From: Acidimicrobiia bacterium
Lineage (GTDB): Bacteria > Actinomycetota > Acidimicrobiia > Spongiisociales > ZC4RG35
DNA: 64,000 bases
Assembly (NCBI GenBank): GCA_963665765.1
Contig: OY762464.1
Location: forward strand, 1,513,741 to 1,577,740
Direction of reading: 5' to 3'
A program made the translations under genes and the position numbers. Below the pieces are notes generated by a model. The model saw only the letters and a program-made list of their open reading frames with translations, did no database searches and had not been told where the DNA came from. Position 1 is the first letter of the stretch. Every line of letters begins with the position of its first letter. Positions 3,091-56,940 of the stretch are shown here, one piece after another.

Positions 3091-5064
3091 ATGGAAGAGT
3101 CCACCGAGGATATGTTCGACTACCCGGCGATCACCGTTGCGTTGGTGGAAGAAATCACCTCCGGCGCCATCTCGGAAGGGGAGCGGCTGAGGGCGGCGGT
3201 GCTGGATGCCGGCCCGAAGCGTTCCTATGACGATACCCTAGCCTCCCTCGAGGAGGTGGGGGAAGTGTTCGGTCGGGCCCACGGCCAGGCGGGGTTCATG
3301 GGTTACGTACACCCCGACGAGGAACTCAGAGCGGCCGGCCGCGCCGCGGGCGAACAACTCTCCAAATGGCTAACGGAACTGGCTTTCCACCCCGGGCTCT
3401 ACCAGGCGGTGGAAGAATTCTCCGCCACCGATGAGGCTGCCCGGTTGTCGGGAGAACGCGCCCGGCTGCTGGAGTTTGTCCGTCGGGACCTGCGGCGCGC
3501 CGGTCATCACCTTCCGGCCCGATCCCAAGAGAGGGTGAAGGAACTCACCGGGCGGCTGATAGAACTGGGGGTCGCCTTCGCTCAGAACATCGCGGAGCAC
3601 GAGGATGCCCTGGAGGTGACCAGGGAGGAACTGGAAGGCCTGCCCGAGGCCTATATCGATTCCCTGCCGCTCTCCCCGGACTGCGAGCGCCTGCTGCGGG
3701 TGACCATGGACTACCCTCACGTCACGCCATTCATGGAGAACGCCCGACGCCGTGACCTGCGGCGCCGCCTGATGAGCAAGTTCAACAGCCGGGCCGTTGG
3801 GACCAACCGACCGCTGCTTGAAGAGGCGGTGGCGATTCGCTCCGAGATAGCGGCGCTGTTTGGCGAGCCATCTTGGGCGCACCATCGCCTTTCTGACCGG
3901 ATGGCCAAGACGCCGGAGCGGGTGGAGGAGTTTTACGAACTGCTGCTGGCCCCGCTTCAGGAGGCCGGCCGCCGGGAAATAGAGCGCATCGCCGAAATGC
4001 TGGAGGCCGATGGGGAGGAACGACCCGTGCAGGTTTGGGATTGGCGGTATTACGACAACCGGATCCGCCGGACCGAATACGGGGTGGACCAGATGGAGGT
4101 GGCGGGGTATTTTCCGCTGGAGCAGGTGGTGGAGGGGATGCTGGACCTGACCGGGGAGGTGTTCGGGCTGCGGTACCGTCCGGCGAGCGCGCCGGTCTGG
4201 CATGAGGACGTGGTCACCTATGCCGTCTTCGACCGGGCATCGGGAGAGCGGCTCGCCCATTTCCACATGGATCTGTTTCCCCGGGAGGGAAAGTTCAGCC
4301 ATGCGGCCGCCTTTACGCTTCGGGGAGGCCGTCGCCTCCCCGACGGGTCCTATCAGGCGCCTGTGTCGGCCATCGTTGCCAACTTCACTCCGCCGTCCGG
4401 CGATGCCCCTGCCCTTTTGCAGCATTCGGAGGTGCTTACGCTGTTTCACGAGTTTGGCCACATTCTGCATCAGGTTCTGACCCGCACGGAATTGGGACGG
4501 TTTTCGGGAACCAGCACGGAAGGCGATTTTGTGGAGGCGCCCAGTCAAATCATGGAGAACTGGACCTGGCAGCCCGAGGTGCTGGCGAGGTTTGCTTTCC
4601 ACTACCGGACCGGCGAGCCTCTGCCCACCGAGGTGTTGGAGAAGTTGTCGGGGGCACAACTGCTGAATGTCGCCATCTCCAAACTGCGACAGGCCGGCTT
4701 CGGGTTGCTGGACATGGCCCTGCACGGCCCCGATCCTGACCCGGACCTCGACGAGATTCTGGCCGCCACCACCGAGGTTGCCCTGTTTCCCCAGCAGGAG
4801 GGGACCTTTTTTCCGGCCAGCTTCGGTCATCTCCTGGCCGGATATGACGCCGGTTATTACGGCTATCTGTGGTCGGAGGTCTACGGGGACGACATGTGGA
4901 GGCGGTTTGAGGAGGAAGGGGTCACCAACCCGGGGGTGGGGATGGAATATCGTCGGGAGGTGCTGGAGAAGGGCGGTTCCCGGGATGCGATCGAGACGCT
5001 CCGCGCCTTTCTGGGTCGAGAACCCGACAACCGGGCTTTCCTCCGCAAATTGGGAATCGAGTAG
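3091..5064 (+). CDS. M3 family zinc oligoendopeptidase (Dcp/thimet-like)
   Basis: 657 aa with HEFGH zinc-binding motif and M3 peptidase architecture. Confidence 0.8.
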   Translation: MEESTEDMFDYPAITVALVEEITSGAISEGERLRAAVLDAGPKRSYDDTLASLEEVGEVFGRAHGQAGFMGYVHPDEELRAAGRAAGEQLSKWLTELAFHPGLYQAVEEFSATDEAARLSGERARLLEFVRRDLRRAGHHLPARSQERVKELTGRLIELGVAFAQNIAEHEDALEVTREELEGLPEAYIDSLPLSPDCERLLRVTMDYPHVTPFMENARRRDLRRRLMSKFNSRAVGTNRPLLEEAVAIRSEIAALFGEPSWAHHRLSDRMAKTPERVEEFYELLLAPLQEAGRREIERIAEMLEADGEERPVQVWDWRYYDNRIRRTEYGVDQMEVAGYFPLEQVVEGMLDLTGEVFGLRYRPASAPVWHEDVVTYAVFDRASGERLAHFHMDLFPREGKFSHAAAFTLRGGRRLPDGSYQAPVSAIVANFTPPSGDAPALLQHSEVLTLFHEFGHILHQVLTRTELGRFSGTSTEGDFVEAPSQIMENWTWQPEVLARFAFHYRTGEPLPTEVLEKLSGAQLLNVAISKLRQAGFGLLDMALHGPDPDPDLDEILAATTEVALFPQQEGTFFPASFGHLLAGYDAGYYGYLWSEVYGDDMWRRFEEEGVTNPGVGMEYRREVLEKGGSRDAIETLRAFLGREPDNRAFLRKLGIE

Positions 5065-8491: not shown

Positions 8492-10696
8492 ATGAAAGGA
8501 ACCGTGAAAATTCAACGTAACAGATCCGCAAGGTGGCTCATTACCGGTCTGGTGGCAGTGCTCAGCCTGGTCGCGGCGGCTTGCGGCGGCGATGCCGAGG
8601 AGGAAACGACCACTACCCGGGCCACCGCCGAAGCCACCACTACCCAAGCGCCTGCCACGACGGAAGCTCCTCCAGAGCCTGTGGCGCCGGTTACTCAGGG
8701 GCCGGGTGGTGAGGAGGCTACTGCGTCGGGTGAGGTTGTTTTGAGTGGTGATGAGATTGCGCGGGTGCGGTCTGGGGGGTACACGGCGGCTTTGTTGTGG
8801 CATACGGCGGGTGCTTTTACCGATGCGGTGAGTCAGGGTGCTCGGGATGCTTTCGCGGAGTTGGGTGTTGAGGTGATTGCTGAGACGAATGCTCAGTTTG
8901 ATGCTGCTCAGCAGGCCAATGATGTGGAGACTGTGTTGGCGCAGGATCCTGACATCATTGTTAGTTTGGTGATTGATCCGGTGTCGGGTGCGGAGGCGTT
9001 TCGTCCGGCGGTCGAGGCCGGGGTGCAGTTGGTGTTTTTGAGTAATGTGCCCGAGGGCTATGTGCACGGTGTTGACTATGTGGGGGTGGTTACCGATGAT
9101 TTGGCGGCGATGGGGATGGCGGCTGCGGATCTGTTGGCGGATGCTTTGGGTGGTGTGGGGAAGGTGGGTTTCATCTTCCATGATGCTGCCTATTACGTGA
9201 CTAATCAGCGTGATCAGGCGTTCAAGACTTGGATTGAGCAGCGTTATCCGGGGATCGAGATCGTTTCTGAGCAGGGGTTGGCTGATCCGGCTCGGGCTGA
9301 GGAGATCGCGGCGGCGTTGTTGACGCGTAATCCTGATCTGGATGGTATTTATGCGCCGTGGTCGGCTGGTCCGGCTGATGGGGTGTTGGCTGCTTTGCGG
9401 GCGGCGGGTGCTTCGGATGTGGCGGTGGTGACGTTGGATCTGGACACCAATGTGTCGTTGGACTTGGTGGAAGGCGGGAACATTGTTGGTATCGCGGCGG
9501 ACGAGGCCTATGCGTTGGGACGGACCATGGCTTTGGAGGGTGCCTATGGGCTGGTTGGCAAGCAGGCGCCGCCGTTCACGGTGGTGCCGGCTATCGCGGT
9601 GACCGCTGACAATATCGTGGAGGCCTACCGGCAGTCACTAGCCACCGACCCACCCGCAGAAATCATGACAGCACTCGGCGAGTCCGTGCCTGTGGCGCCG
9701 GTTACTCAGGGGCCGGGTGGTGAGGAGGCTACTGCGTCGGGTGAGGTTGTTTTGAGTGGTGATGAGATTGCGCGGGTGCGGTCTGGGGGGTACACGGCGG
9801 CTTTGTTGTGGCATACGGCGGGTGCTTTTACCGATGCGGTGAGTCAGGGTGCTCGGGATGCTTTCGCGGAGTTGGGTGTTGAGGTGATTGCTGAGACGAA
9901 TGCTCAGTTTGATGCTGCTCAGCAGGCCAATGATGTGGAGACTGTGTTGGCGCAGGATCCTGACATCATTGTTAGTTTGGTGATTGATCCGGTGTCGGGT
10001 GCGGAGGCGTTTCGTCCGGCGGTCGAGGCCGGGGTGCAGTTGGTGTTTTTGAGTAATGTGCCCGAGGGCTATGTGCACGGTGTTGACTATGTGGGGGTGG
10101 TTACCGATGATTTGGCGGCGATGGGGATGGCGGCTGCGGATCTGTTGGCGGATGCTTTGGGTGGTGTGGGGAAGGTGGGTTTCATCTTCCATGATGCTGC
10201 CTATTACGTGACTAATCAGCGTGATCAGGCGTTCAAGACTTGGATTGAGCAGCGTTATCCGGGGATCGAGATCGTTTCTGAGCAGGGGTTGGCTGATCCG
10301 GCTCGGGCTGAGGAGATCGCGGCGGCGTTGTTGACGCGTAATCCTGATCTGGATGGTATTTATGCGCCGTGGTCGGCTGGTCCGGCTGATGGGGTGTTGG
10401 CTGCTTTGCGGGCGGCGGGTGCTTCGGATGTGGCGGTGGTGACGTTGGATCTGGACACCAATGTGTCGTTGGACTTGGTGGAAGGCGGGAACATTGTTGG
10501 TATCGCGGCGGACGAGGCCTATGCGTTGGGACGGACCATGGCTTTGGAGGGTGCCTATGGGCTGGTTGGCAAGCAGGCGCCGCCGTTCACGGTGGTGCCG
10601 GCTATCGCGGTGACCGCTGACAATATCGTGGAGGCCTACCGGCAGTCACTAGCCACCGACCCACCCGCAGAAATCATGACAGCACTCGGCGGATAA
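8492..10696 (+). CDS. Lipoprotein made of two tandem type-I periplasmic substrate-binding domains (ribose/sugar-binding-like ABC SBP)
   Basis: GGAGGA Shine-Dalgarno motif then ATG 8492; signal peptide with lipobox (LVAAACGG). Two consecutive 337-aa PBP-type-I domains that are 100% identical at DNA level. Confidence 0.75.
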   Translation: MKGTVKIQRNRSARWLITGLVAVLSLVAAACGGDAEEETTTTRATAEATTTQAPATTEAPPEPVAPVTQGPGGEEATASGEVVLSGDEIARVRSGGYTAALLWHTAGAFTDAVSQGARDAFAELGVEVIAETNAQFDAAQQANDVETVLAQDPDIIVSLVIDPVSGAEAFRPAVEAGVQLVFLSNVPEGYVHGVDYVGVVTDDLAAMGMAAADLLADALGGVGKVGFIFHDAAYYVTNQRDQAFKTWIEQRYPGIEIVSEQGLADPARAEEIAAALLTRNPDLDGIYAPWSAGPADGVLAALRAAGASDVAVVTLDLDTNVSLDLVEGGNIVGIAADEAYALGRTMALEGAYGLVGKQAPPFTVVPAIAVTADNIVEAYRQSLATDPPAEIMTALGESVPVAPVTQGPGGEEATASGEVVLSGDEIARVRSGGYTAALLWHTAGAFTDAVSQGARDAFAELGVEVIAETNAQFDAAQQANDVETVLAQDPDIIVSLVIDPVSGAEAFRPAVEAGVQLVFLSNVPEGYVHGVDYVGVVTDDLAAMGMAAADLLADALGGVGKVGFIFHDAAYYVTNQRDQAFKTWIEQRYPGIEIVSEQGLADPARAEEIAAALLTRNPDLDGIYAPWSAGPADGVLAALRAAGASDVAVVTLDLDTNVSLDLVEGGNIVGIAADEAYALGRTMALEGAYGLVGKQAPPFTVVPAIAVTADNIVEAYRQSLATDPPAEIMTALGG
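8677..10691 (+). repeat. Perfect tandem duplication: 1,004 bp x2, period 1,011 bp (8677-9680 and 9688-10691)
   Basis: Direct comparison of the two copies at their starts, middles and ends shows identical sequence. The junction carries a 7-nt linker, agtccgt. Confidence 0.85.
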
Positions 10697-13800: not shown

Positions 13801-14676
13801 TTAGCTGCTCGGTCTGGTGGTAACGGGCGCCCCGGTGGTGGTCGTGGTGGCTTGACTGGTGGTGGTTGTGGTGGCGGGTGCCTCGGTGGTGGTTGTGGTG
13901 GCGGGCGCCCGGGTGGTGGCGGTGGTGGCGGGCGCCCGGGTGGTCGTGGTAGTAGCAGGCGCGGCAGGAGCAGTGACGGTCAGGTCCCGGCTGACGATCA
14001 GGGAGGCTATCTCGTCGTCTCCGATGTACTCCGCGATAATCTCGGCGATGCCCTGGGTGAATACCCCGAACGCGGCCACCATGCCCGCTTGCGCGGCGCG
14101 GCGCTGTTCCCCGGCATCAGTCGATCGCAGGCCTTCCAGCATCTCCGCCGCCGTTACGGCGATCTGGCCGACCGCAGAGGCGACGGTCAGATGTTTCTCC
14201 GGGTACCGGCCGGTCGGAGGGGGTTGAACCAGGTCGAAATCGGCCTGGGCGGTTTGCAGGTTCTCTACGGCCGCCTCCAAATCCTCCTCGGTTTCCGAAT
14301 AAGTGGCCTCGGTTTCCGACCGATTGTCCCAGTCGTTGCTGATCGCGCTTATCTGATCCACCAATCGGCTGAAAGCCACTTCGTGGGCGAGGAGGCTTTT
14401 GAGAAAGTCCTGAACCACCTCGGTCGGAAAGGCGGCGCCGGTGGTTGTCTGGGTGGTGGCGGCGGCGGTGGTGACGGTGGTCTCCGGCGGTGAAGTGACG
14501 GTGGTTGTCTGGGTGGTGGGTGACCGAGGAGCGATGCTGGTTGTCGATGCGGTAGTGTCGACTGCCTCCTCCGCGTCGGAGGTGGCCGGGGGGGCCTCAA
14601 CCGGGTCGAGCAGGCACGAGGAGCCGCCCAAAAAAATCATGGAAAGAACCAGGAGCGCAATCGCGACTCTACGCAT
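13801..14676 (-). CDS. Secreted lipoprotein with Thr/Pro-rich low-complexity regions (hypothetical)
   Basis: Signal peptide plus lipobox (LGGSSC), TTTT/PATT repeats at both ends, and a central domain shared with the paralog at 15084-16007. Confidence 0.5.
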   Translation of the reverse strand: MRRVAIALLVLSMIFLGGSSCLLDPVEAPPATSDAEEAVDTTASTTSIAPRSPTTQTTTVTSPPETTVTTAAATTQTTTGAAFPTEVVQDFLKSLLAHEVAFSRLVDQISAISNDWDNRSETEATYSETEEDLEAAVENLQTAQADFDLVQPPPTGRYPEKHLTVASAVGQIAVTAAEMLEGLRSTDAGEQRRAAQAGMVAAFGVFTQGIAEIIAEYIGDDEIASLIVSRDLTVTAPAAPATTTTTRAPATTATTRAPATTTTTEAPATTTTTSQATTTTTGAPVTTRPSS

Positions 14677-15083
14677 GCTCGGCGCCCAGGGGATACCGAC
14701 CCCGAGGACGGGAGGCTGGGCCGCCATCGCCGAGGGGGTCTTTGGTGAATTCAAGAGAGGTCTTCATCAGGTGGAAATATACCCGCTGTCCGCCGCTAGA
14801 TGAGGTATTGATGGGGATGCCCACGCGCTTTATGTATTCATCCCTTCGAATCTCCGCTTGGCCGATGCGCCGGGAAATGTGCTTTTGCCTACCGAGGTCT
14901 CGGGCTTGGATCGGGATTCTGTAATAAACGTATCCCAGATCATCACTCTCGACAAGGCTGATCTGATCCAACCAAAGACGCGGGCGGATCCGGCACTGCG
15001 GTTGGTGGACAACGGGCTCTCGTTGGTTTTGGGCTTTTCGGGGAAGCTGTGAGGGTTTTCGCCGGCCCGATGACGTCCGTGTC

Positions 15084-16007
15084 TCAGGGCAAGGTTTCGC
15101 AAGCCACCCGGTTGCCGTTGGTATCCATCAGCGCCACGTCGCCGTAGAAGGGAAAGTAGGCGTCGAACCACTCTTGGGCTTCGGCCTGGGTGGAGAAGTC
15201 ACTGCAGTTTTTGGTGTTGCCCGGATTGGGGGGCGCCTCGGCGGCGACCGTGGTCGGAACAGTTTCCGGAACGTCCGTCACCGGAGGGGGAGCGAAGGTT
15301 GGGCCGGCGGCCAGCAACGCCTCTCCCTCCTCTCCGATGACCGCCGCCACCTGCGCAATCACTTCTCCCAAGAGATCGAAGGCGGTCAAGAATCCCACCA
15401 CCGCGGCTTGGCGAGCCTGGCCGGTGTCGGTGGAACGTAACCCGTCGAGCATCTCCTGGGAGGTATCTGCCATGATGGCCACCGCCGCGGCGGCGGTACG
15501 GTGCTCCTGCCCGAGCACGATCTCGGCCGGGGGTTCTATCAGGCCGAAAAAGTCTTGGAGACTCAGGGCGCGCCCGGCGGCGGCCTCCAAGGCGGATGCG
15601 GTGTCGGAGAAGGAGACACCTGTCCGGGAACGATCGTCCCAGTCGTCGTTGATGGCTCCGACGCTCTCCGCCAACTCGGAGAAACCGGCCTCGGTCGACA
15701 GCAGTTGCTCGAGGTAGCGGAGCGCGCTTCCCACCGAAGGGTCGGTGGTGGTGGTCGCAGCCGTGGTGGTGGTCGTTTCGGGAAGGGCGGCGGCGGTGGT
15801 GGGCGAGGGGCGGTCGGCGCCGGCGGTCGGCGACGGGGCAATGGCGGCGGGCACGGTGATAGTTGGGCTGGGGGATAGGGATTCTTCGGACTCGAAGAGC
15901 GCGCAGGACGAGCCGCTCGCCGCAATGGCCAGCAAAATGGCCACGGGCACCCAAGAAACCCGGCGCGCCCCGGGTCTTGGGCGGAAGGGTTTACGCCGCA
16001 CCGGCAC
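15084..16007 (-). CDS. Secreted lipoprotein paralog with a C-terminal Excalibur-like calcium-binding domain
   Basis: Lipobox ASGSSC. C-terminal NCSDFSTQAEAQEWFDAYFPFYGDVALMDTNGNRVACE matches the Excalibur DxDxDGxxCE-type motif. Central domain is homologous to 13801-14676. Confidence 0.5.
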   Translation of the reverse strand: MPVRRKPFRPRPGARRVSWVPVAILLAIAASGSSCALFESEESLSPSPTITVPAAIAPSPTAGADRPSPTTAAALPETTTTTAATTTTDPSVGSALRYLEQLLSTEAGFSELAESVGAINDDWDDRSRTGVSFSDTASALEAAAGRALSLQDFFGLIEPPAEIVLGQEHRTAAAAVAIMADTSQEMLDGLRSTDTGQARQAAVVGFLTAFDLLGEVIAQVAAVIGEEGEALLAAGPTFAPPPVTDVPETVPTTVAAEAPPNPGNTKNCSDFSTQAEAQEWFDAYFPFYGDVALMDTNGNRVACETLP

Positions 16008-20494: not shown

Positions 20495-22518
20495 CTATCC
20501 AGGATAGAGATCGTGGACGTTTTCTCGGGTTACCGGGGAGACCGACGGGATCAGCCGTTCGGGGACGGTATTCCCTTCGATCAGGTCCACAATGGCCGGC
20601 ACCAGGTACTGGCCGTAGCGCTCGGGGAAGTAGGAGATGGTGGCTTTGAACACCGACTCGTCGTCGGAGCGTCCCCGCAGATCTACCAGCGCCTCGTCAG
20701 AGGCGCCCAGGCTGGCTGCGGCAGCGTGGCCCAAGAAGCCACTTTGCTCCAACGCCAATGCGCAGTCCACGCCGGGTTGGTCGCTGTGTCCGAAGCAGAG
20801 CACGTGCTTGGCGTCGGGGTTGCCGGTGGCCCAGGTGGTTACGTTGGGAAGGGTGTCGGTGAGACCCTCGGTGGGAATGTCGTGGACGTTCTCGTCGGGA
20901 ATGGCAAAGGTCTCCCGAACGCCGTCTCGGGCGCCGTCGGCGCGGGCCTTGTGGACGGGCACGTCCGGGGTCCAGATCAACAGCAGTTCGGTCTCTTCCG
21001 GCGCCCAACCCTGTTCCTGGGCGAAGGCGGCCAGGAAGCGTCCGGCCTCCAACGCGGCGTTGTAGTTGTCGGGGCCGAAGGCCACGCATCCGGGGTGGGG
21101 TCCGTCGTAGGAGACGCAGGGGATCCCGGCGTCGTGGAAGATCCCGGAGATGAGTTCTTCGGTGCCGGCGATCCAGTTGGCGAAGATCACTCCGTCAACT
21201 TCCTGGGTGACCAGCAGGTTGGAGCACTCCACGGTCCTTTCCTGGTCGTAGGCGTTGTCGCAGTAGACGATCTCCACGCCCATCTCGGCTGCGATGGCGT
21301 TGATGTTGTCGGTCACGCTGTCGGTGAACGGAATACCCGAAAGCCCGTCACCGTAACCTAGCCTCCAGGGTTGCTCGGCTGCCCTGATCACGGCCTCGTA
21401 TTCGTCGCCGGAACCCATGGCTTCTTCGTCCAGTTCGCCTCCGGGGTACAAGTCCTCGACGTTGTCGCGGGTGACTGGTTCAACCGAGGGGATCAGCCTT
21501 TCGGGTATGTCGGTGCGTCCCTCGATGAGGTCGACTATGACCGGCACCAGGTACTGGCCGTAGCGCTCGGGGAAGTAGGAGATGGTGGCTTTGAACACCG
21601 ACTCGTCGTCGGAGCGTTCGCGCAGTTCGACCAGCGCTTCGGTGGAGGCGCCGGTCCCTACCGCGGCGGCATTGCCCAGGAACCCGTTCTGTTCCAGCGC
21701 CAGACCGCAGTCCACGCCGGGTTGGTCGCTGTGTCCGAAGCAGAGCACGTGCTTGGCGTCGGGGTTGCCGATCGACCAGGTGGTTACGTTGGGAAGGGTG
21801 TCGGTGAGACCCTCGGTGGGGATGTCGTGGATGTTGTCATCAGGAATGTCGAACAACTCCCGAACGCCGTCGGTGGCGCCATCGGCCCGGGCCTTGTGGA
21901 CGGGCACGTCCGGGGTCCAGATCAACAGCAGTTCGGTGTCGGCGGGATCCCATCCTTGGTCCATTGCGTATTGGGCCAGGTAGCGACCGGCGGCCACGCC
22001 GGCTTCGTAGTTGTCGGGGCCGAAGGCCACGCATCCGGGGTGGGGTCCGTCGTAGGAGACGCAGGGGATCCCGGCGTCGTGGAAGATCCCGGAGATGAGT
22101 TCTTCGGTGCCGGCGATCCAGTTGGCGAAGATCACTCCGTCAACTTCCTGGGTGACCAGCAGGTTGGAGCACTCCACGGTCCTTTCCTGGTCGTAGGCGT
22201 TGTCGCAGTAGACGATCTCCACGCCCATCTCGGCTGCGATGGCGTTGATGTTGTCGGTCACGCTGTCGGTGAACGGAATACCCGAAAGCCCGTCACCATA
22301 ACCAATCTTCCAAACTTCTGTGGCCGGACGGATCACGGCCTCGTAGGGACCGCTGGGCATCGCCGGCTCTTCTTCCACCACGGTTTCCTCGGGGGTTTCT
22401 TCAACCGCGGCGGCGGTGGTTACGGGGGCGTCGGTGGGGGCGGGCGCCTCGTCGTCCTCTCCGCAGGCTGCCACCAACAGGGCGACAACCGCAATTCCAA
22501 CTATCAATTTGCGTGGCA
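20495..22518 (-). CDS. Lipoprotein with two tandem type-I periplasmic substrate-binding domains (ABC SBP)
   Basis: Start MPRKLIVGIAVVALLVAACGE (lipobox). Two roughly 315-aa repeats with high amino-acid identity, including a 290-bp core that is identical at DNA level (21062-21352 vs 22007-22297). Confidence 0.7.
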
Positions 22519-22669
22519 TTCTCAACCTTTCTCTTATGCATCTAAGTGGCGAGGAATCCTTCGCCAACCGGGACGTACCCCACGACCGGCAGGTCGGTAT
22601 AAAGCGGAGGTGCCCGGTAAAAAATATCCTAACCCCACCCGCCGGAAGAGGGGGGAGCCTCAACCGACA

Positions 22670-28769: not shown

Positions 28770-29879
28770 TTGAGGGTACTGGCCTTTGCCGATCTCCACT
28801 TGGACGCGCCCTTTGCCGGAAGAGGTCCCAGGTTGGCTCGATTGCGCCGTGACGAGTTAAAGAACACCCTGGGCAGGATTATTCAATTGGCAGGGAGGCT
28901 AGAGGTGGATGCTCTGATGTGCGCAGGGGACTTGTACGAGCATGAGCTATTCACTCCCGACACCGTTCAGATGTTGCGTCGCCTTTTCGATGAGATAGCT
29001 CCCATCCCGGTATTGGTTTCTCCCGGGAACCACGACTGGTTTGGGCCGGGAAGCATCTATGTGACGGCCGACTGGTCACCCAACGTCCACATCTTTGGCT
29101 CAAGCAAAATGACACCATACGATGGCATTGACGGCGTTCGGGTGTGGGGTTTCGCTCATAGGAATCCTTCACAGACCGAGAACCCATTGGGTCGATTTAG
29201 GGTTGAAGGCCAGGGTTTGCACTTGGGGCTGTTACACGGATCGGAGGTTGGGGGCTGGGCCGGCGTAGCGCAATCCCATCCTGAAAAAATACGACACGCG
29301 CCATTTCGCTCCGAGAACCTCACCAGAGCGGGCTTGACTCATGGCATAGTTGGCCACTACCACAGTCCTTTCATGGGAGAGTTCCACACATACCCTGGGG
29401 CGCCCGCCCCGCTTTCATTTAAGGATCAAGGCAGAGGAGGAGCAGTTGAGATGCGGTTTAGTGCTCAGGGTGCCTTGATCGAACGTACTTCACATAGGGT
29501 TACCAGCTTGCCGGTCTACGATTTGCGCGTCGATGTGAGCGGATGCCTTGATTTCGGAGAAATACAGGACCGTATGGAAGCTGCGTTGGAGTCACTGGAA
29601 GGGGTAGCCAGAGTCACGATCTGTGGGGAATTGGGCAGTGCTGTGGAGCTCGACCTGGCCGTGCTCAGTCAGCGGCGAGGACAGTTACAAGATCTCGTGG
29701 TTCGCTCGGGCAGCATCTATCCCGGCTATGACATTGCAGCCATAAGAGATGAGTCCACGGTACGTGGGGCATTTGTTAGGGACCTGATGGCGGCCGATCT
29801 TGATGATGACGAACGACACCGGGTCATCATCACTGGATTGCGCGCTCTTGAGGGTCGTAACGATCTAGCGGTGGGCTGA
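28770..29879 (+). CDS. Calcineurin-like metallophosphoesterase, SbcD/Mre11-like nuclease (YhaO/SbcF-like)
   Basis: DLHLD, GDLYEH and GNHD phosphoesterase motifs. TTG start with GGAGAG 9-15 nt upstream (28755-28760). Confidence 0.7.
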   Translation: MRVLAFADLHLDAPFAGRGPRLARLRRDELKNTLGRIIQLAGRLEVDALMCAGDLYEHELFTPDTVQMLRRLFDEIAPIPVLVSPGNHDWFGPGSIYVTADWSPNVHIFGSSKMTPYDGIDGVRVWGFAHRNPSQTENPLGRFRVEGQGLHLGLLHGSEVGGWAGVAQSHPEKIRHAPFRSENLTRAGLTHGIVGHYHSPFMGEFHTYPGAPAPLSFKDQGRGGAVEMRFSAQGALIERTSHRVTSLPVYDLRVDVSGCLDFGEIQDRMEAALESLEGVARVTICGELGSAVELDLAVLSQRRGQLQDLVVRSGSIYPGYDIAAIRDESTVRGAFVRDLMAADLDDDERHRVIITGLRALEGRNDLAVG

Positions 29880-29882
29880 TCT

Positions 29883-30359
29883 ATGTGGTTCCGCAAGGTT
29901 ACGGCCGGGGCATTTGGTCACTTGCGCGACGAGAGCTTGAAGTTCGGGAAGGCTCTCAATATTGTCTACGGACCCAATGAGTCAGGAAAATCGACGTGGC
30001 ATGCCGCCTTGGTAGCAGCTCTGTGCGGACAGAAACACGGTAGTGGACGCACCAAGGCGGAGCGGAATTTCAAGAGACGCCGTAAGCCTTGGGACGACCC
30101 GGATCGATGGCATATCGCCTTGGAGTTGGTGTTGAATGATGGGCGAATATTTGAGATTGATCGCGACCTGAATGTTCCGAGGACCAGGGTTCTCGATATA
30201 GGTATGGGTGGGAGAGAACCAACCGATGACCTGATGAACCAGGGCAGTCCCGACGGCGCCAGATGGCTCGGGCTTGACCGAAACAACCTTTCCGCTGACA
30301 GCCTCGGTCAGCCAGGCAGACATACTTTCGATACTCAATCTGGGGACGCGACAGCGTAA
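29883..30359 (+). CDS. SbcC/Rad50-like AAA ATPase, N-terminal Walker A fragment (out of frame with the remainder)
   Basis: GPNESGKST P-loop. The ORF terminates at 30359 while the homologous protein continues in the +1 frame. Confidence 0.6.
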   Translation: MWFRKVTAGAFGHLRDESLKFGKALNIVYGPNESGKSTWHAALVAALCGQKHGSGRTKAERNFKRRRKPWDDPDRWHIALELVLNDGRIFEIDRDLNVPRTRVLDIGMGGREPTDDLMNQGSPDGARWLGLDRNNLSADSLGQPGRHTFDTQSGDATA

Positions 30360-33012
30360 AAGCGAGCGTGATGCTTTGCAAGAGCGTCTCGCTCGGGCGG
30401 CGGCGGGTGGAGCGGGTGATACGGCGGCGGGAGCTATTGAGCGCATTAGGAAGTTCTCAACTGAGAACGTAGGACTCGATCGCAGGAATGCGAAAAGACC
30501 CCTCCGACTTGCGATCGAAGGCGTGAAGAGAGCTGAAATCCAACTGTCGAAGACCCGTGACCGCCGTCAAGAATATGTGGATCTAGCAAGAAGAGCGGAT
30601 AGGACTCGGCGAAATGTCCGGTTGCTGGAGGGTCAGCAGGCAGCGCTAAGGGCATTAGGAGCCAGAGACGAAGCCGAAGCACGGGCAAATCAATTGCTGG
30701 AACAAACAACAAGGCTGGAGGAGTGGGAGCGGCGCTTTGTTGATGGGGATCCGCGTGCTCGGAGGGAAGTGAATATGGCGGAGTTGGTGGTTGCTCTGAG
30801 TGGTGCTCGGGGTGCGCCTGGGTCTGTTGGGACGGATCTTGATCCGTTGGAGGTTCTTGAGGGTCGGTTGGAGGAGTTGGATCGGCAGAGGGCGTTGGTT
30901 GAGGCGTTTGAGGGCTTGGAGGAAGCTGAGATGCGGGCGGAGGAGTTGGAGCGGGAGGTCAAGCGTCTTGAGAGGTGGGAACAACGGTTTCCTGATGCGG
31001 ATCCACGCAATCGGGAACTGATGAGTTTTACCGACATTGCTTCCGCGGTTACCCGATGCAACAACCTGCCAAAGCCCGGGTTCACGGACATTGATCCTCT
31101 GAAGATTCTTGAGGAACGCATCTCCATGCTCGATGACTCATCCCCGAAGCCATGCCCTAGCCCCGGTGATGTCCAGCGGTGGATAATCCCCTTGCGAGAA
31201 ACGCCTCCCCCTCCGAGGCAGGAACTGCAGTCACAGATATCGGAAGCCAGGCGCAAGAACGCACCCCCGAAGGCCAATTCGTTGGCCCGGGGGAGACTGA
31301 TCCTGTCCGCCATGGTCGGCGTTGCCGCGGCCGTCGCGGTCTGGATGGCTACAGCAAGAATTCTTTACGGAGTCTTGGCCGGAGTTCCGGTGGCTCTGGG
31401 ATTGATGTTTCTTCGAGTCGGTTCTTCCAGGCATGGACCCGTGGCATCTGTCGATATCAATTTGCTGGAACGGCAACTGCGGGAACGGGACACACTCGAT
31501 GCCAGGGTCGCGCAAGCCCATCGGTTCCTTCGGGAGTGGGAGCTTCCTCTTGACCCGGATGCCGCCATAGCCGAGTTCTATAACAGGGAACGCGCTTGGA
31601 GCGAGCAAACCACTGAACGGCGAAGGCTCGAAGAGATGGTCGCTCGGCGGAGGCGGCTTGATGATGATGAGGCGCAGCGGATTGCTGAACGGGAGAGCGC
31701 TTTTGGCGAGTTGCGGAACGTCGTTGTTCTGTACGGAGGAGATGCATCCGGTGACGAGGGCCAGATTCTCGGTGAGGCTACGTATTTGCTGAATGATCTT
31801 CAGCGGGTGGCGCGAGATCGACAACAGGATGCTGCGGAGTGGGGACGGTTTCAGGAAGCGCTGGCGGGCCGTTCCGTAGAAGAATGGCGAGCTGAAGCTG
31901 GAAGCTGTAGACAACACGCGGAGCTAGCGAGAAGTAGAGCGGAGAATTTGGCTGCCGGGTTTAGTGGTGAGATTTTGGAAATGAAGAGTATCGAAGCCGA
32001 ACGGGAAAAGATTAAGGGAGCGATCTTCCGCCGACGGCGGTTTGATGAGGATGAGGCGAGGCGGTGTGTGGCGAGGGAGGAGGCTTTTGGGGAGTTGCGG
32101 AGGGTGGTGGTCTTGTATGGGGGGGATGGTTCTGGTGGGGAGGGCGAGGTTTTGAGGGTGGCTGATGGTTTGTTGGATCGTTTTGAGCGTTTGGCGCAGC
32201 AGCGGAGTGGGGATGTTGCGGAGTGGGGACGGTTTCAGGAGGCGCTTGGGGGTCGTTCGGTAGAAGAATGGCGGGCTGACGCCGACCTTGCCAGTCGTGA
32301 AGCGAGGAAAGCCGGACAAAAGGCTGATGAGTTGGCGCCCGCTTTAGAGCAGGAATTGCTGCGTTCTGATAGCAGGGAGACGGATCGCTTCCTGCGAGAT
32401 GCGAAGGAGGAAGCGATCAGAACTGCCGGTCAACTGGAGCAGATAGACACAGACTTGGTGGATGTGGCCACGGCACAGTCCGTTCTTGATGAAGCCAAGC
32501 TTGAGTTAGAGCGGGTACAGCGCCTTCAGAGGACCTTAAACATCGCCAGTGAACACCTGCAACGAGCTGCTGAGCACGCCCATCGGCTGCTCGCGCCAAG
32601 GTTGGAAGCTCTCATGAAGGAGTGGATCCCGATCATTACCGGAGATCGTTATGTGGACGTGCTCGTCGATCCAGAGACACTTGAGGTGAAATTGCGTCAT
32701 ATGGATGGCATGATTAGGGAGGCGGCGCTCCTGTCATATGGAACAGCCGAGCAGGTGTACTTACTGTTGCGGATGATTCTCGCTCAGGTATTGACCGACG
32801 GACACGAACCATGTCCGGTGTTGCTCGACGATCCCACCGTGCATGCCGACCTCGATCGCAAGGAGCAGGTGCTGGAGTATCTTCTCCAGGCATCTGACAA
32901 CTTTCAGGTGATCCTATTCACCCAGGACCAACTCGTGGAGCAATGGGCCAGTTCCCGCCGTTCTGATCATAGAATCAAGCTCCTCGAACTCACGGTTCCC
33001 GTGGTTGGCTGA
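30274..33012 (+). CDS. SbcC/YhaN (SbcE)-like ATPase body: coiled-coil arms, central double TM hairpin, C-terminal signature/Walker B/D-loop
   Basis: C-terminus LLSYGTAEQVYLLLR...VLLDDPTVHADLDR is an SMC/SbcC-type signature and Walker B. Central LILSAMVGVAAAVAVWMATARILYGVLAGVPVALGLMFL reads as two TM helices. Two pairs of internal diverged repeats. Confidence 0.6.
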   Translation: MTETTFPLTASVSQADILSILNLGTRQRKSERDALQERLARAAAGGAGDTAAGAIERIRKFSTENVGLDRRNAKRPLRLAIEGVKRAEIQLSKTRDRRQEYVDLARRADRTRRNVRLLEGQQAALRALGARDEAEARANQLLEQTTRLEEWERRFVDGDPRARREVNMAELVVALSGARGAPGSVGTDLDPLEVLEGRLEELDRQRALVEAFEGLEEAEMRAEELEREVKRLERWEQRFPDADPRNRELMSFTDIASAVTRCNNLPKPGFTDIDPLKILEERISMLDDSSPKPCPSPGDVQRWIIPLRETPPPPRQELQSQISEARRKNAPPKANSLARGRLILSAMVGVAAAVAVWMATARILYGVLAGVPVALGLMFLRVGSSRHGPVASVDINLLERQLRERDTLDARVAQAHRFLREWELPLDPDAAIAEFYNRERAWSEQTTERRRLEEMVARRRRLDDDEAQRIAERESAFGELRNVVVLYGGDASGDEGQILGEATYLLNDLQRVARDRQQDAAEWGRFQEALAGRSVEEWRAEAGSCRQHAELARSRAENLAAGFSGEILEMKSIEAEREKIKGAIFRRRRFDEDEARRCVAREEAFGELRRVVVLYGGDGSGGEGEVLRVADGLLDRFERLAQQRSGDVAEWGRFQEALGGRSVEEWRADADLASREARKAGQKADELAPALEQELLRSDSRETDRFLRDAKEEAIRTAGQLEQIDTDLVDVATAQSVLDEAKLELERVQRLQRTLNIASEHLQRAAEHAHRLLAPRLEALMKEWIPIITGDRYVDVLVDPETLEVKLRHMDGMIREAALLSYGTAEQVYLLLRMILAQVLTDGHEPCPVLLDDPTVHADLDRKEQVLEYLLQASDNFQVILFTQDQLVEQWASSRRSDHRIKLLELTVPVVG

Positions 33013-33160: not shown

Positions 33161-33403
33161 GTGGCATCAGTGCAGATAACTCGACGGACGGCACTCCGGG
33201 AGTCAGGGTTCACCGAGGCTCAGACCAACGCCTTGGCTATGGCTCTGGAGCCGCTGGCAACCAGGGAAGACCTCCGGGCCATGGTGGAAATGGTTCGTTG
33301 TGATGTGGAAATGGTTCGTAATGATTTGCGGTGGATGAAGTGGGTTGGAGGGGCGATCGGCGTGGCGGTGCTTGCCGAACTGGTTAGGGGCCTCTTTCTT
33401 TGA
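33161..33403 (+). CDS. Small coiled-coil protein with C-terminal TM helix (XhlA/DUF1640-like, hypothetical)
   Basis: 80 aa with an N-terminal helical region, the tandem motif VEMVRCD/VEMVRND, and C-terminal WVGGAIGVAVLAELV TM segment. Confidence 0.35.
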   Translation: MASVQITRRTALRESGFTEAQTNALAMALEPLATREDLRAMVEMVRCDVEMVRNDLRWMKWVGGAIGVAVLAELVRGLFL

Positions 33404-33517: not shown

Positions 33518-34111
33518 ATGGCGATAGAACCGGACGACCATTCCACACTGCGGGAGCATTTCGCGTGGACTTACGGAACACTCGCTATGGTGCACGCGGC
33601 CATCGTTGACGGCGGGATCCGCTACAAGCCTCTCCACTTCATCATCCGAGGTCGATTCCGGAAGGGCTACCTATCCGGGAAAATGAATATGCGACCGCTA
33701 TATGACGACGAAAAAACAAAGATCGCGTATGCCACAACATGCTGCTACTGCGGACGTAAAGCAAAACTGACACTTGATCACCTAATTCCCCGACTGAAAG
33801 GTGGCGCCGACGCTGCCGACAACATCACCTACGCGTGCAAGAGTTGCAACTCGTCCAAGGGAGCAAAGGACATGGTGCTCTGGCTGAAATCCAAAGACCG
33901 CTTCCCGGCCGTACTCGTTTTCCGCCGGTATCTAAAGCTCGCCGCGCGCTGGTGCGAGGACGAAAAACTGATGGACACGCCTTGGGAAGAGATACCCGAT
34001 GCGTCTCTCCCGTTTGACAAGCGGTCTCTCCGAGTCGAGTGGCCAAGGCTGGCCAGCCAGCGGTTGTGGCCAGACCCATGGAACGGGGAGGGGGATGTCC
34101 GCCCCCTGTGA
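33518..34111 (+). CDS. HNH endonuclease
   Basis: CCYCG...LTLDHLIPRLKGG...NITYACKSCNSSKG matches the HNH/His-Me finger motif. Local GC is lower (about 55%). Confidence 0.75.
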   Translation: MAIEPDDHSTLREHFAWTYGTLAMVHAAIVDGGIRYKPLHFIIRGRFRKGYLSGKMNMRPLYDDEKTKIAYATTCCYCGRKAKLTLDHLIPRLKGGADAADNITYACKSCNSSKGAKDMVLWLKSKDRFPAVLVFRRYLKLAARWCEDEKLMDTPWEEIPDASLPFDKRSLRVEWPRLASQRLWPDPWNGEGDVRPL

Positions 34112-56733: not shown

Positions 56734-56940
56734 ATAGGACCTCTAAGAGCCAGAATAGGCGGTGGGTTGGTAATGCTTGCAGAAAAGGGAAAGAATTTAT
56801 TACGAAAGCTCTGAAAAGTGAGATAGGGTTGAAGGGTTACAAATATCTGAAGCCAATGAAATTCTTGATTACACGTGGATTAGTTATCCCTGGAGGGGAC
56901 AGGCCGATCATCGCTCGTTTAAGATGGGTAACCGGAAGCC

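Follow-up and report, generated by a model that had tools for sequence, protein, structure and literature searches.

G+T-skewed tracts on tandemly repeated modules of an SbcC/YhaN-type ATPase gene from an uncultured Acidimicrobiia bacterium

ATPase gene and its tandem arrays

The window, i.e., the whole 64,000-nucleotide stretch of DNA that was analyzed, carries on its plus strand an SbcC/YhaN-type ATPase gene (29883–33012) with a 1-nt frameshift near position 30281, preceded directly by an SbcD/YhaO-like gene (Table 1). These genes lie side by side in every relative examined, and the ATPase shows the features of SbcC/YhaN-type SMC-like proteins, namely, an AAA_23/AAA_27 head, a long coiled coil, a C-terminal lobe, and an adjacent SbcD-like phosphoesterase. 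The head joins the ORF at 30274–33012 (a +1 frameshift) only when one A of the motif cgaaacaacc (~30281) is deleted; the extra base is absent from the close relative L001 (L-numbers denote loci of relatives, and W denotes the window genome), and frameshifts of the ATPase gene were present in both W and L001. The intact ATPases of relatives are encoded by a single ORF (1038–1254 aa). The body of the protein matched database protein P0002 exactly (100% identity) and showed 60–94% identity to P0001–P0010, in the full-length members of which AAA_27, AAA_23, and SMC_N were found. An exact database look-up of the SbcD-like protein gave no match, and zero matches to Rfam families were found across the whole window.

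Self-comparison of the 912-aa ORF (30274–33012) revealed two tandem in-frame duplications with periods of 252 nt (R1) and 384 nt (R2), which bore out the two diverged internal repeat pairs of the preliminary description and their coordinates. The R1 repeat was present as described, but its size of 56 aa was an underestimate: residues 118–203 matched residues 202–287 with a period of 84 aa (30625–30882 and 30877–31134 in the DNA). In R2, residues 448–577 matched residues 576–705 with a period of 128 aa (31615–32004 and 31999–32388) and 55–62% identity; at the DNA level, units A and B were 72.9% identical, and the only nucleotide-level self-match of the ATPase gene was 247 nt long.

Table 1. Positions of the genes, repeat arrays, and skewed tracts in the window.
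Feature	Position	Strand	Remarks
SBP (Peripla_BP_4) gene, skewed mature-domain tract	8677–10691	+	Exact 1004-bp tandem duplication (8677–9680 = 9688–10691), 7-nt filler
Second Peripla_BP_4 gene (negative control)	20498–22345	−	906-bp tandem duplication, 87% identity; unskewed, |GC| 0.10–0.12, |TA| 0.12–0.13
SbcD/YhaO-like metallophosphoesterase gene	28770–29879	+	Pfam Metallophos (1.9e-10), Metallophos_2; directly upstream of the ATPase gene
ATPase N-terminal head (Walker A)	29883–30281	+	Pfam AAA_27 (8e-10), AAA_23 (6e-9); frame differs from the rest
ATPase body	30274–33012	+	Coiled-coil arms with two tandem arrays, central hydrophobic segment, C-terminal ATPase lobe (ORF list, translation)
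Array R1	30625–31134	+	Two 252-nt units (30625–30876, 30877–31128); ~40% aa and 41–51% nt identity
R1 skewed tract	30713–30981	+	G+T-rich, C/A-poor, one period long; GT 0.73, C 0.13, GT3 0.94
Array R2	31615–32388	+	Two 384-nt units; A core 31645–31893, linker 31894–32028, B core 32029–32277, tail 32278–32388
R2 skewed tract (B unit)	32029–32277	+	GT 0.76–0.78, GT3 0.90, C3 0.04; C-poor zone from 31876

Extent, direction, and age of the G+T skew

The maximal-segment scan detected two G+T-rich segments in the ATPase gene, 30713–30959 (GT 0.73, score 18.5) and 32036–32261 (GT 0.78, score 31.0), the top G+T segment score in shuffled sequences being 10.5, as well as C-poor tracts at 30716–30981 and 31876–32271; no G-poor tract was found by the same scan in the whole window. 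At the third positions of the R1 block, GT3 was 0.94, C3 0.04, and A3 0.02, while elsewhere in the ATPase gene GT3 was 0.40–0.60 in the R1 partners, 0.71 in the A unit of R2, and 0.53–0.56 in the remainder, with a mean of 0.51 over 1,719 80-codon windows of coding-like ORFs. Among the coding-like ORFs of the window, GT3 exceeded 0.75 in the SBP and ATPase genes only, and these shared the T/G-ending, TTG-rich codon style noticed earlier: TTG accounted for 7 of 11 and 6 of 7 leucine codons in the two ATPase tracts versus 23% in background genes. Each repeat pair thus has one strongly skewed copy (GT3 0.94 and 0.90), as the preliminary description had it; however, the R1 tract is out of phase with the units, running from the first to the last (second) 'EEWE.RF' anchor across the unit boundary, and the R2 A unit is itself mildly skewed. 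Nor was the skew purely synonymous, as had been supposed, since codon positions 1 and 2 were shifted too (GT1 0.70–0.75, GT2 0.52–0.61) and amino acid replacements contributed, the B units being enriched in Gly, Val, Arg, and Leu (TTG).

The mean GC and TA skews were 0.53 and 0.37 in the R1 tract and 0.70 and 0.42 in the R2 B unit (window-wide mean absolute values of 0.125 and 0.134 in 150-nt windows), and their correlation reached r = 0.95 in the R2 C-poor zone and 0.87 in the SBP tract versus 0.20 window-wide. All skewed tracts of the window lay on the plus strand, in agreement with the preliminary description, and were of positive sign only; this strand is leading-sense, with G3 > C3 in plus-strand genes and C3 > G3 in minus-strand genes. 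The skew is real: chance and low complexity were excluded by the shuffles and the GT3 distribution, and an assembly or sequencing artefact by the occurrence of the same tracts in independent JGI, SPAdes, and long-read assemblies, including the independent short-read assemblies L007, L008, L012, L014, and L015. The G+T-rich spots at 13834–13953, 14440–14558, and 15739–15889 represent a different phenomenon, i.e., Thr/Pro/Ala linkers of minus-strand lipoprotein genes. Antisense ORFs were observed opposite the tracts (30655–30984 and 31924–32319); they were set aside as a by-product, as the A+C-rich strand has no stop codons. A tract length equal to the duplication period, which would indicate newly inserted DNA, fits R1 (266 vs. 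252 nt) and was not relied on; in R2 the C-poor tract measured 396 nt against a period of 384 nt, but under the G+T-rich definition its length of 226 nt gave no match, and in L001 the C-poor zone spanned the entire R2 array.

The SBP duplication was 100% identical, with mean |GC skew| of 0.36, mean |TA skew| of 0.32, and a core GT3 of 0.91. In its orthologues, located in conserved synteny, GT3 rose from 0.31–0.41 (L009–L011) through 0.69 (L013) to 0.75–0.80 (L012 and W), while the neighboring genes remained at ~0.5; the SBP skew arose stepwise in situ. The skewed gene is single-copy in L012. The four-fold identity of W and L012 was 80% in the SBP gene versus 51% in five neighboring genes, and nucleotide identity was ~94% over roughly 8514–9500; to judge from this comparison, a ~1-kb block holding most of the skewed SBP tract was exchanged between lineages. 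The signal peptide and linker (first ~60 codons) keep C-ending codons, though they lie inside this block. The 737-aa 'double' SBP proteins of another lineage are read-through fusions with an upstream peptidase and not duplications. The link between skew and repeats drawn in the preliminary description therefore holds in part: the skew coincides with repeated modules, but repetition is neither necessary (single-copy SBP gene of L012) nor sufficient (unskewed duplication at 20498–22345). Equally skewed patches were not frequent in non-repeated genes, which had been named as grounds against that link, since no G+T-direction tract scoring above 14 was found in ~415 kb of loci with distant homologues.

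Changes in the SBP core were polarized by taking as ancestral the state of L009 where it coincided with that of L010. In W, 132 changes from A/C to G/T (C>T 83, C>G 37, A>G 10, A>T 2) were counted versus 7 in reverse, and in L013, 87 versus 0; the polarization controls were symmetric. At third positions the ratio was 100 to 0, with nearly all changes synonymous. C>T was the biggest single class (83 of 151 changes), and transversions were likewise one-way (C>G 37 vs. G>C 3 in W, 29 vs. 0 in L013); at four-fold sites C>G (22) was about as frequent as C>T (21), with a single C>A, although the apparent C>G may in part have been two-step, C>T and then T>G. In the B unit the per-site rate was 0.25 for A/C-to-G/T and 0.04 for the reverse, and the A units were symmetric. 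The C-to-T bias expected between the copies did not emerge from the DNA alignment and substitution tally, in which all kinds of A/C-to-G/T change took part, transversions included (A>G 30, C>G 16, T>G 14, C>T 13, and G>A 17 between the R2 copies). Where polarizable, the recoding is thus a one-way A/C-to-G/T process, and its one-way transversions argue against explanations by deamination only or tautomers only; the polarized changes point to a recombination bias filtered by mismatch repair or to selection on composition. W and L001 differed at 7 of 510 sites within the tracts and at 33 of 2220 outside, i.e., alike, which indicates no present-day hypermutation.

Both skews were common to relatives at ~70% protein identity, and that of R1 was also found in a 60% relative, the outgroup L006: the R1 tract had GT3 of 0.9–1.0 in W, L001, L002, L004, and L007, as well as in L006. 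The skew is thus orthologous and long-lived, and a recent event on a duplicate does not agree with orthology at 60–70% amino acid identity. Between W and L006, four-fold sites in the remainder of the ATPase gene were just 43% identical, i.e., near saturation; a one-off event would have decayed over this divergence, so a lasting force maintains the R1 skew. GT3 of the B units was 0.82–0.94 in five relatives and 0.65 in L006, and the R2 A and B unit types were orthologous between species. R1 arrays comprised two or three units in relatives, the tract covering one period in two-unit and two periods in three-unit arrays, including that of L006, and R1 modules were up to 83% identical; the R2 layout was A, B, B in L001, L002, and L008. 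Array size varied between two and three units within the species pairs W/L001, L004/L002, and L007/L008, and B cores were 95–97% identical within one genome versus 80–83% between species (concerted evolution). Consequently, the skewed modules are those that have been re-duplicated, deleted, and homogenized. A scan of the genome collection returned one relative only.

Possible causes of the skew

The ATPase tracts are probably small elements of the type known as GRINS, described by Nivina et al. (2021) and found most often in Actinobacteria (PMC8256042); they would sit on copy-number-variable, concertedly evolving modules of the coiled-coil arms and be kept up by a persistent recombination-linked bias. 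We infer that this is a lasting bias of fixation and not a mutation burst. The following stand against this reading: the ATPase tracts fall short of the GRINS thresholds of length and identity in the window, selection for G+T content predicts the same substitution pattern, the duplicated SBP gene at 20498–22345 is unskewed, and so are the SBP signal peptide and linker in spite of their position within the exchanged block.

As to the source of such a bias, our speculative candidate, to which we assign a rather low probability, is the mismatch blind spot of NucS. As probable Acidimicrobiia, the organisms are presumed to have NucS/EndoMS as their sole mismatch repair. NucS corrects G·T, G·G, and T·T in repair patches of ~6 nt but disregards A·C, A·A, and C·C. 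If heteroduplex of fixed strand polarity joined module copies or alleles, one strand would lose each of the four G/T-to-A/C changes and retain each of the four A/C-to-G/T changes, giving a net ratchet toward G+T. In vivo, with oligonucleotides on the lagging-strand template, dG-dG, dG-dT, and dT-dT were removed, and dC-dC, dA-dA, dC-dA, and dA-dC were kept (PMC11551744). Candidate sites of repeated one-polarity heteroduplex or annealed single-stranded DNA would be tandem modules, multi-copy elements, and recombination-hot conserved genes. The idea would explain the coupling of GC and TA skews, the one-way transversions, and the prevalence of GRINS in Actinobacteria; its extension, that GRINS-type skews generally are the footprint of keto-biased gene conversion caused by this blind spot, is less probable still. 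Against the NucS idea, the presence of the enzyme in the genome is presumed, GRINS have been reported from phyla and eukaryotes that lack NucS, and with skews of both signs along one strand (PMC8256042), and IS elements of the relatives flip skew sign mid-element, which calls for extra assumptions about strand polarity.

Selection on nucleic acid composition, favoring a C/A-poor, G+U-rich mRNA or a C-rich unstructured antisense strand, is an unlikely alternative, although it would accommodate the outlasting of saturated divergence by the skew and the almost entirely synonymous changes in the SBP gene, which encodes a conserved, probably abundant protein within an operon. Such selection could reflect evasion of actinobacterial RNase E, whose cuts fall 5′ of C (the mycobacterial enzyme prefers cytidine; PMC10641625), evasion of Rho, or a low complexity that aids useful recombination; for the antisense RNA of the tract, much less structure was predicted (−0.17 vs. 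−0.40 kcal/mol/nt). However, the ATPase is not plausibly highly expressed and is frameshifted in W and L001, yet has the most skewed tracts; the skew is limited to repeat modules inside one transcript; the first ~60 SBP codons escape it; and A was purged too, not C alone. Sense-mRNA structure was rejected as a cause, since predicted folding showed no difference, and so was translational codon bias, as codons in the ribosomal-protein genes of a relative end in C rather than in G/T and neighboring genes are normal.

Strand-specific damage or misreplication giving transitions, either by deamination of C and A in exposed single-stranded DNA (R-loops, lagging-strand template) or by the tautomer-driven mispairing proposed by the authors of GRINS (PMC8256042), is more doubtful. 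It agrees with the predominance of C>T in the SBP gene, with a G-rich non-template strand that would favor R-loops, with a G4-type motif at 32119–32158, and with a leading strand that is mildly G+T-rich genome-wide (PMC6159521), whereas transversions as one-way as transitions, sharp tract edges within a single transcript, and the unraised present-day rate in the tracts speak against it.

Import of segments from a donor with generally G/T-ending codon usage is very improbable: the abrupt change of composition at tract edges and the unusually low synonymous divergence of the W/L012 SBP block, which implies inter-lineage transfer, would suit it, but relatives fall into the same order by SBP identity as by identity of the flanking genes, the skew increases in steps along the lineage, the L013 SBP gene is partly skewed although it has diverged to the same extent as its flanks, all relatives have orthologous ATPase tracts, and no donor with such codon usage was found among 1,370 SBP homologues or 80 metagenome loci. 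RIP-like C-to-T hypermutation of one duplicate, or adenine mutagenesis of a variable repeat of the diversity-generating retroelement type, has a negligible probability, for beyond the compositional aberrance of one copy per pair, the copy differences are neither dominated by C>T and G>A nor confined to adenines (all four bases differ), coding capacity is kept, the skew is ancient and orthologous, the skewed SBP gene exists as a single copy, and in five relatives the genes called up to 10 kb away included none with a reverse transcriptase domain.

Comparison with known systems

Fungal RIP also ties composition change to duplicated DNA, but it makes C>T and G>A changes in both copies and destroys genes, whereas here transversions are common, one strand is affected, frames are kept, and the skew persists until silent sites elsewhere saturate. 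GC-biased gene conversion resembles the putative process in its recombination-dependent fixation bias and in a local composition change that mimics selection; the axis here, however, is keto (G, T) versus amino (A, C) and strand-specific. In organisms with NucS/EndoMS, the leading strand has an excess of C>T and A>G, as reported together with the in vitro specificity of NucS (Takemoto et al. 2018, PMC6159521). The leading-sense excess of G and T is shared with this asymmetry, and the enzyme recognizes only G- or T-containing mismatches; but that effect is chromosome-wide and weak, in contrast to GT3 of 0.9–0.95 over 250–1000 nt beside normal codons. If the NucS link were true, bacterial genes would be subject to a novel form of biased gene conversion, with relevance to the engineering of repeat-rich genes in Actinobacteria.

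GRINS are defined by duplication over more than 500 bp, DNA identity above 80%, and mean absolute GC and TA skews above 0.15 in 150-nt windows (PMC8256042). The SBP duplication satisfies these formal thresholds (1004 bp, 100% identity), whereas the ATPase modules fall below those of length (252 and 384 nt) and identity (72.9% for R2 and 41–51% for R1 in the window); the skew threshold was exceeded in the R1 tract, the R2 B unit, and the SBP gene. The correlation of the skews (r from the R2 zone and the SBP tract), the third-position maximum, and the amino acid shift typical of GRINS were also found. GRINS occur on repeated modules under gene conversion, although single-copy skewed regions are known as well, and outside polyketide synthases they are frequent in replication, recombination, and repair genes and in transposases (PMC8256042); here, evidence from relatives for gene conversion comprises the concerted evolution of B1 and B2, the copy-number variants, and the SBP exchange block. 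The tracts differ from typical GRINS in the size of the ATPase modules (252–384 nt) and the identity of their copies in the window (41–73%), in the host, an uncultured Acidimicrobiia bacterium and not Streptomyces, in the genes, a coiled-coil ATPase and a transporter binding protein instead of a polyketide synthase, and in the positive sign only of the skew in the window. As GRINS-type examples from genes other than polyketide synthases, they stem from uncultured actinobacteria with small genomes and come with an internal negative control; for the SBP gene, the skew grows in steps from L009 via L013 to L012 and W, and unskewed orthologues in conserved synteny allow changes to be polarized. Meanwhile, the tracts share with GRINS the intense same-sign GC and TA skews that make coding DNA G+T-rich with abrupt edges, the strongest effect at third positions with amino acids shifted toward Gly, Val, and Trp, and the location on converting repeat modules, in a repair-type gene, and in Actinobacteria.

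Compositional tracts in the ATPase gene

The skew in the tracts of the SbcC/YhaN-like ATPase gene is real and far above chance. Maximal-segment scans delimited two G+T-rich tracts, with scores of 18.5 and 31.0 vs. at most 10.5 in shuffled sequences, as well as two C-poor tracts (see the table). Across the 64 kb, no mirror-image G-poor tract was found, and the A+C-rich direction gave just six short spots (38–58 nt) with scores of 10–11, which is the shuffle level. The G+T fraction at third codon positions (GT3) was 0.94 in the tract of the R1 array and 0.90 in the B unit of the R2 array vs. a mean of 0.51 for all coding-like ORFs of the window; the R2 A unit had 0.71, the R1 partners had 0.40–0.60, and other parts of the gene had 0.53–0.56. 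Windows of 80 codons with GT3 above 0.75 occurred in no gene besides this one and the substrate-binding-protein (SBP, Peripla_BP_4) gene. The preliminary description, according to which one copy of each ATPase repeat pair follows the GT-rich codon style of the SBP duplication, was borne out by these values and by the codons common to all three tracts (TTG, GAT, GAG, GCG/GCT and GGG/GGT).

Coordinates of the genes, duplications and compositional tracts of the window
Feature	Coordinates	Strand	Remarks
SBP gene	8492–10696
SBP tandem copies	8677–9680; 9688–10691		exact, in frame, 1004 bp; 7-nt filler AGTCCGT
Paralogous putative lipoprotein genes	13801–14754; 15084–16007	−	Thr/Pro/Ala-rich linkers
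G+T-rich spots	13834–13953; 14440–14558; 15739–15889	+	arise from lipoprotein linkers
Second Peripla_BP_4 binding-protein gene	20495–22663	−	third positions C-rich (C fraction up to 0.8)
Tandem duplication in the latter	20498–21400; 21440–22345		906 bp, 87% identity, mature domain
SbcD-like phosphoesterase gene	28770–29879		directly 5' of ATPase gene
ATPase head	29883–30281		AAA_27/AAA_23; SbcC/YhaN-type, SMC-like
ATPase body	30274–33012		912-codon ORF, remainder of the protein
R1	30625–30882; 30877–31134		period 84 aa (252 nt); ~40% aa identity
R2	31615–32004; 31999–32388		period 128 aa (384 nt); 55–62% aa identity
G+T-rich tracts	30713–30959; 32036–32261		scores 18.5; 31.0
C-poor tracts	30716–30981; 31876–32271
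80-aa ORF	33161–33403		just 3' of ATPase gene; no Pfam match
G+T-rich, C-poor stretch in this ORF	33281–33353		4% C; 21–24-nt tandem micro-duplication (MVEMVRCD / VEMVRND)
HNH endonuclease gene	33518–34111		~500 nt 3' of ATPase gene
A-rich stretch	56752–56887		136 nt; C-poor (10%), picked up by C-poor scan

R1 and R2 are in-frame tandem duplications revealed in the ATPase body by protein self-comparison. The R1 tract is not congruent with one unit but spans the first to the last 'EEWE.RF' anchor, a distance of one period in arrays of two units and of two periods where relatives have three units. A protein search returned the source contig (2.94 Mb) together with relatives whose identities were 94%, about 70% and 60%, and the DNA of the relatives was compared. 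Both arrays were present in all relatives compared at an identity of at least about 60%, with variable copy number: R2 had the layout A, B, B in L001, L002 and L008 and A, B in their respective near-conspecifics (the window genome, L004 and L007), and three R1 units were found in L002 and L007. The A and B units were each orthologous between species. The GT3 of the B unit was 0.90–0.94 in the window genome and L001, 0.82–0.84 in L002, L004 and L007, with the outgroup L006 lowest at 0.65, while that of the A unit was 0.69–0.73 in every genome compared. The R1 tract had a GT3 of 0.9–1.0 in all relatives compared, the outgroup included; since the identity between the window genome and the outgroup was only 43% at four-fold sites elsewhere in the gene, the R1 skew has been maintained and is no relic. 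The cores of B1 and B2 were 95–97% identical inside one genome and 80–83% identical between species; as judged from the sequences, concerted evolution of the B cores is indicated. The divergence from the closest relative, L001, was 1.6%, equal within and outside the tracts, and the tracts are therefore not hypermutating at present. A long-read artefact was ruled out by the same tracts in JGI and SPAdes short-read assemblies. The surroundings of 78 distant homologues in other lineages (~415 kb) contained no G+T-rich tract with a score above 14 and only two A+C-rich ones, both weak.

The ATPase head and body are out of frame because of one additional A near 30281 (in 'cgaaacaacc', 30270–30290), absent from L001; that genome carries 1-nt deletions of its own at 29006 (window coordinates) in the sbcD-like gene and at 30342 in the ATPase gene. 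The differences between these two genomes were spread almost evenly over codon positions (11, 10 and 19). The frameshifts may represent decay of the operon in this species or homopolymer errors. The HNH endonuclease gene was found at its position only in these two genomes and was absent there from other relatives.

History of the skew in the SBP gene

Among the skewed tracts, the SBP gene has the clearest history; gene order around its orthologues is conserved (ROK regulator, M20 peptidase, SBP, permease, YhfX-like protein and ABC ATPase). The orthologues of L009–L011 (75–89% aa identity) were unskewed (GT3 0.31–0.41), that of L013 (90%) was intermediate (0.69), and the single-copy gene of L012 (96%) and that of the window genome had a GT3 of 0.75–0.80 overall and 0.9–1.0 in the mature domain; the flanking genes had a GT3 of ~0.5 in all these relatives. 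With the state shared by L009 and L010 taken as ancestral, the window gene had accumulated 132 changes from A/C to G/T (C>T 83, C>G 37, A>G 10, A>T 2) vs. 7 in reverse, with a ratio of 100 to 0 at third positions; the ratio was 87 to 0 in L013, and the counts were symmetric in control lineages. Because almost all of these changes were synonymous, they were gradual under purifying selection and not a single burst.

The block at ~8514–9500 had ~94% nt identity with L012 and its flanks ~75% (80% and 51%, respectively, at four-fold sites); the much lower divergence of the block at silent sites points to recent homologous exchange of the larger part of the SBP gene between the two lineages. In the window genome the tract is doubled, encoding a 734-aa double Peripla_BP_4 protein; this duplication may have arisen very recently, or it may be an artefact of assembly. 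SBP homologues with 81–84% identity were labelled Acidimicrobiaceae, and the host organisms are probably Acidimicrobiia.

Candidate explanations of the bias

A persistent one-way bias from A/C to G/T was observed, limited to modules that were duplicated, deleted, homogenised or exchanged. The proposed link of skew to repeats held in part: the 87%-identical duplication at 20498–22345 was unskewed, and repetition alone is therefore insufficient. (L001 encodes a comparable 674-aa double Peripla_BP_4 protein.) The implied C-to-T mechanism failed, since the R2 copies differed most often by A>G (30), followed by G>A (17), C>G (16), T>G (14) and C>T (13). The direction of change is hence A/C to G/T; both transitions and transversions contribute, and many amino acids are replaced.

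We infer that the bias is linked to recombination, and reading the tracts as recombination-linked skews of the type of GRINS, a published class of skewed repeats (Nivina et al. 2021, PMC8256042), appears moderately probable. Under selection for G+T content, the substitutions expected would be no different from those of such a bias. A step involving NucS, presumed to be present in the window genome, is a speculative and rather improbable component. NucS/EndoMS is the mismatch repair on which Actinobacteria depend, and it cuts G/T, G/G and T/T but not C/A (PMC6159521). In M. smegmatis, with oligonucleotides on the lagging-strand template, dG-dG, dG-dT and dT-dT were removed in ~6-nt patches, whereas dC-dC, dA-dA, dC-dA and dA-dC were retained (PMC11551744). 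On the template strand, this specificity would block all four changes from G/T to A/C and permit all four from A/C to G/T; the predicted pattern would equal the observed one on the strand read as leading-sense from third-position skews. The proposal is weakened by the occurrence of GRINS in taxa without NucS and of both signs on one strand.

Mutation by deamination or tautomers only is disfavoured, as transversions were just as one-way as transitions (C>G vs. G>C, 37:3 in the window gene and 29:0 in L013), although part of C>G was perhaps two-step, because G/T interchange made up 44% of the differences from L012 within the tract. Foreign origin disagrees with the relatives, which rank alike by SBP identity and by flanking genes, with a stepwise increase in skew. 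Sense-mRNA structure was unchanged, only the antisense RNA becoming unstructured, and no known RNA family matched the window. Codon adaptation was set aside given the C-ending codons in a relative's ribosomal-protein genes, and a DGR given the lack of adenine specificity and of a reverse transcriptase nearby. The G+T-rich spots of the lipoprotein linkers are an unrelated effect of amino-acid composition.

Comparison with GRINS

GRINS are coding regions that occur in duplicate and combine abrupt edges with intense GC and TA skews of equal sign; the skew peaks at third positions, and Gly, Val, Cys and Trp are enriched (PMC8256042). They are tied to gene conversion, are most frequent in Actinobacteria and, outside polyketide synthases, often lie in transposases or in genes for replication, recombination and repair; single-copy skewed regions were also observed by the same authors, who call the mechanism unknown (PMC8256042). 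None was offered in the later papers found. The dated series of this lineage and its polarised substitution spectrum could make the mechanism testable, and the case is of moderate interest mainly for that reason.

In relatives, IS elements that switch skew sign along their length (DDE_Tnp_1 and DUF772 at 4597–6340 in L004/L005; IS481-like at 932–1957 in L003) have a transposase coding strand that is G+T-rich in its 5' half and A+C-rich in its 3' half and still encode a recognisable protein, in agreement with the abundance of GRINS in transposases. A 449-nt A+C-rich stretch of L010 (361–809; A 0.31, C 0.46), with no called gene, resembles the A+C-rich end of the L004 element.

According to the GRINS thresholds (length >500 bp, identity >80% and skew criteria), the SBP duplication belongs to this class (1004 bp, 100% identity, |GC| 0.36, |TA| 0.32, r = 0.87). 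The ATPase tracts reach the required skews (|GC|/|TA| of 0.53/0.37 in R1 and 0.70/0.42 in R2) and in the window fall below the length and identity limits. They are a new, sub-threshold case of the known, mechanistically unexplained GRINS-type skews.
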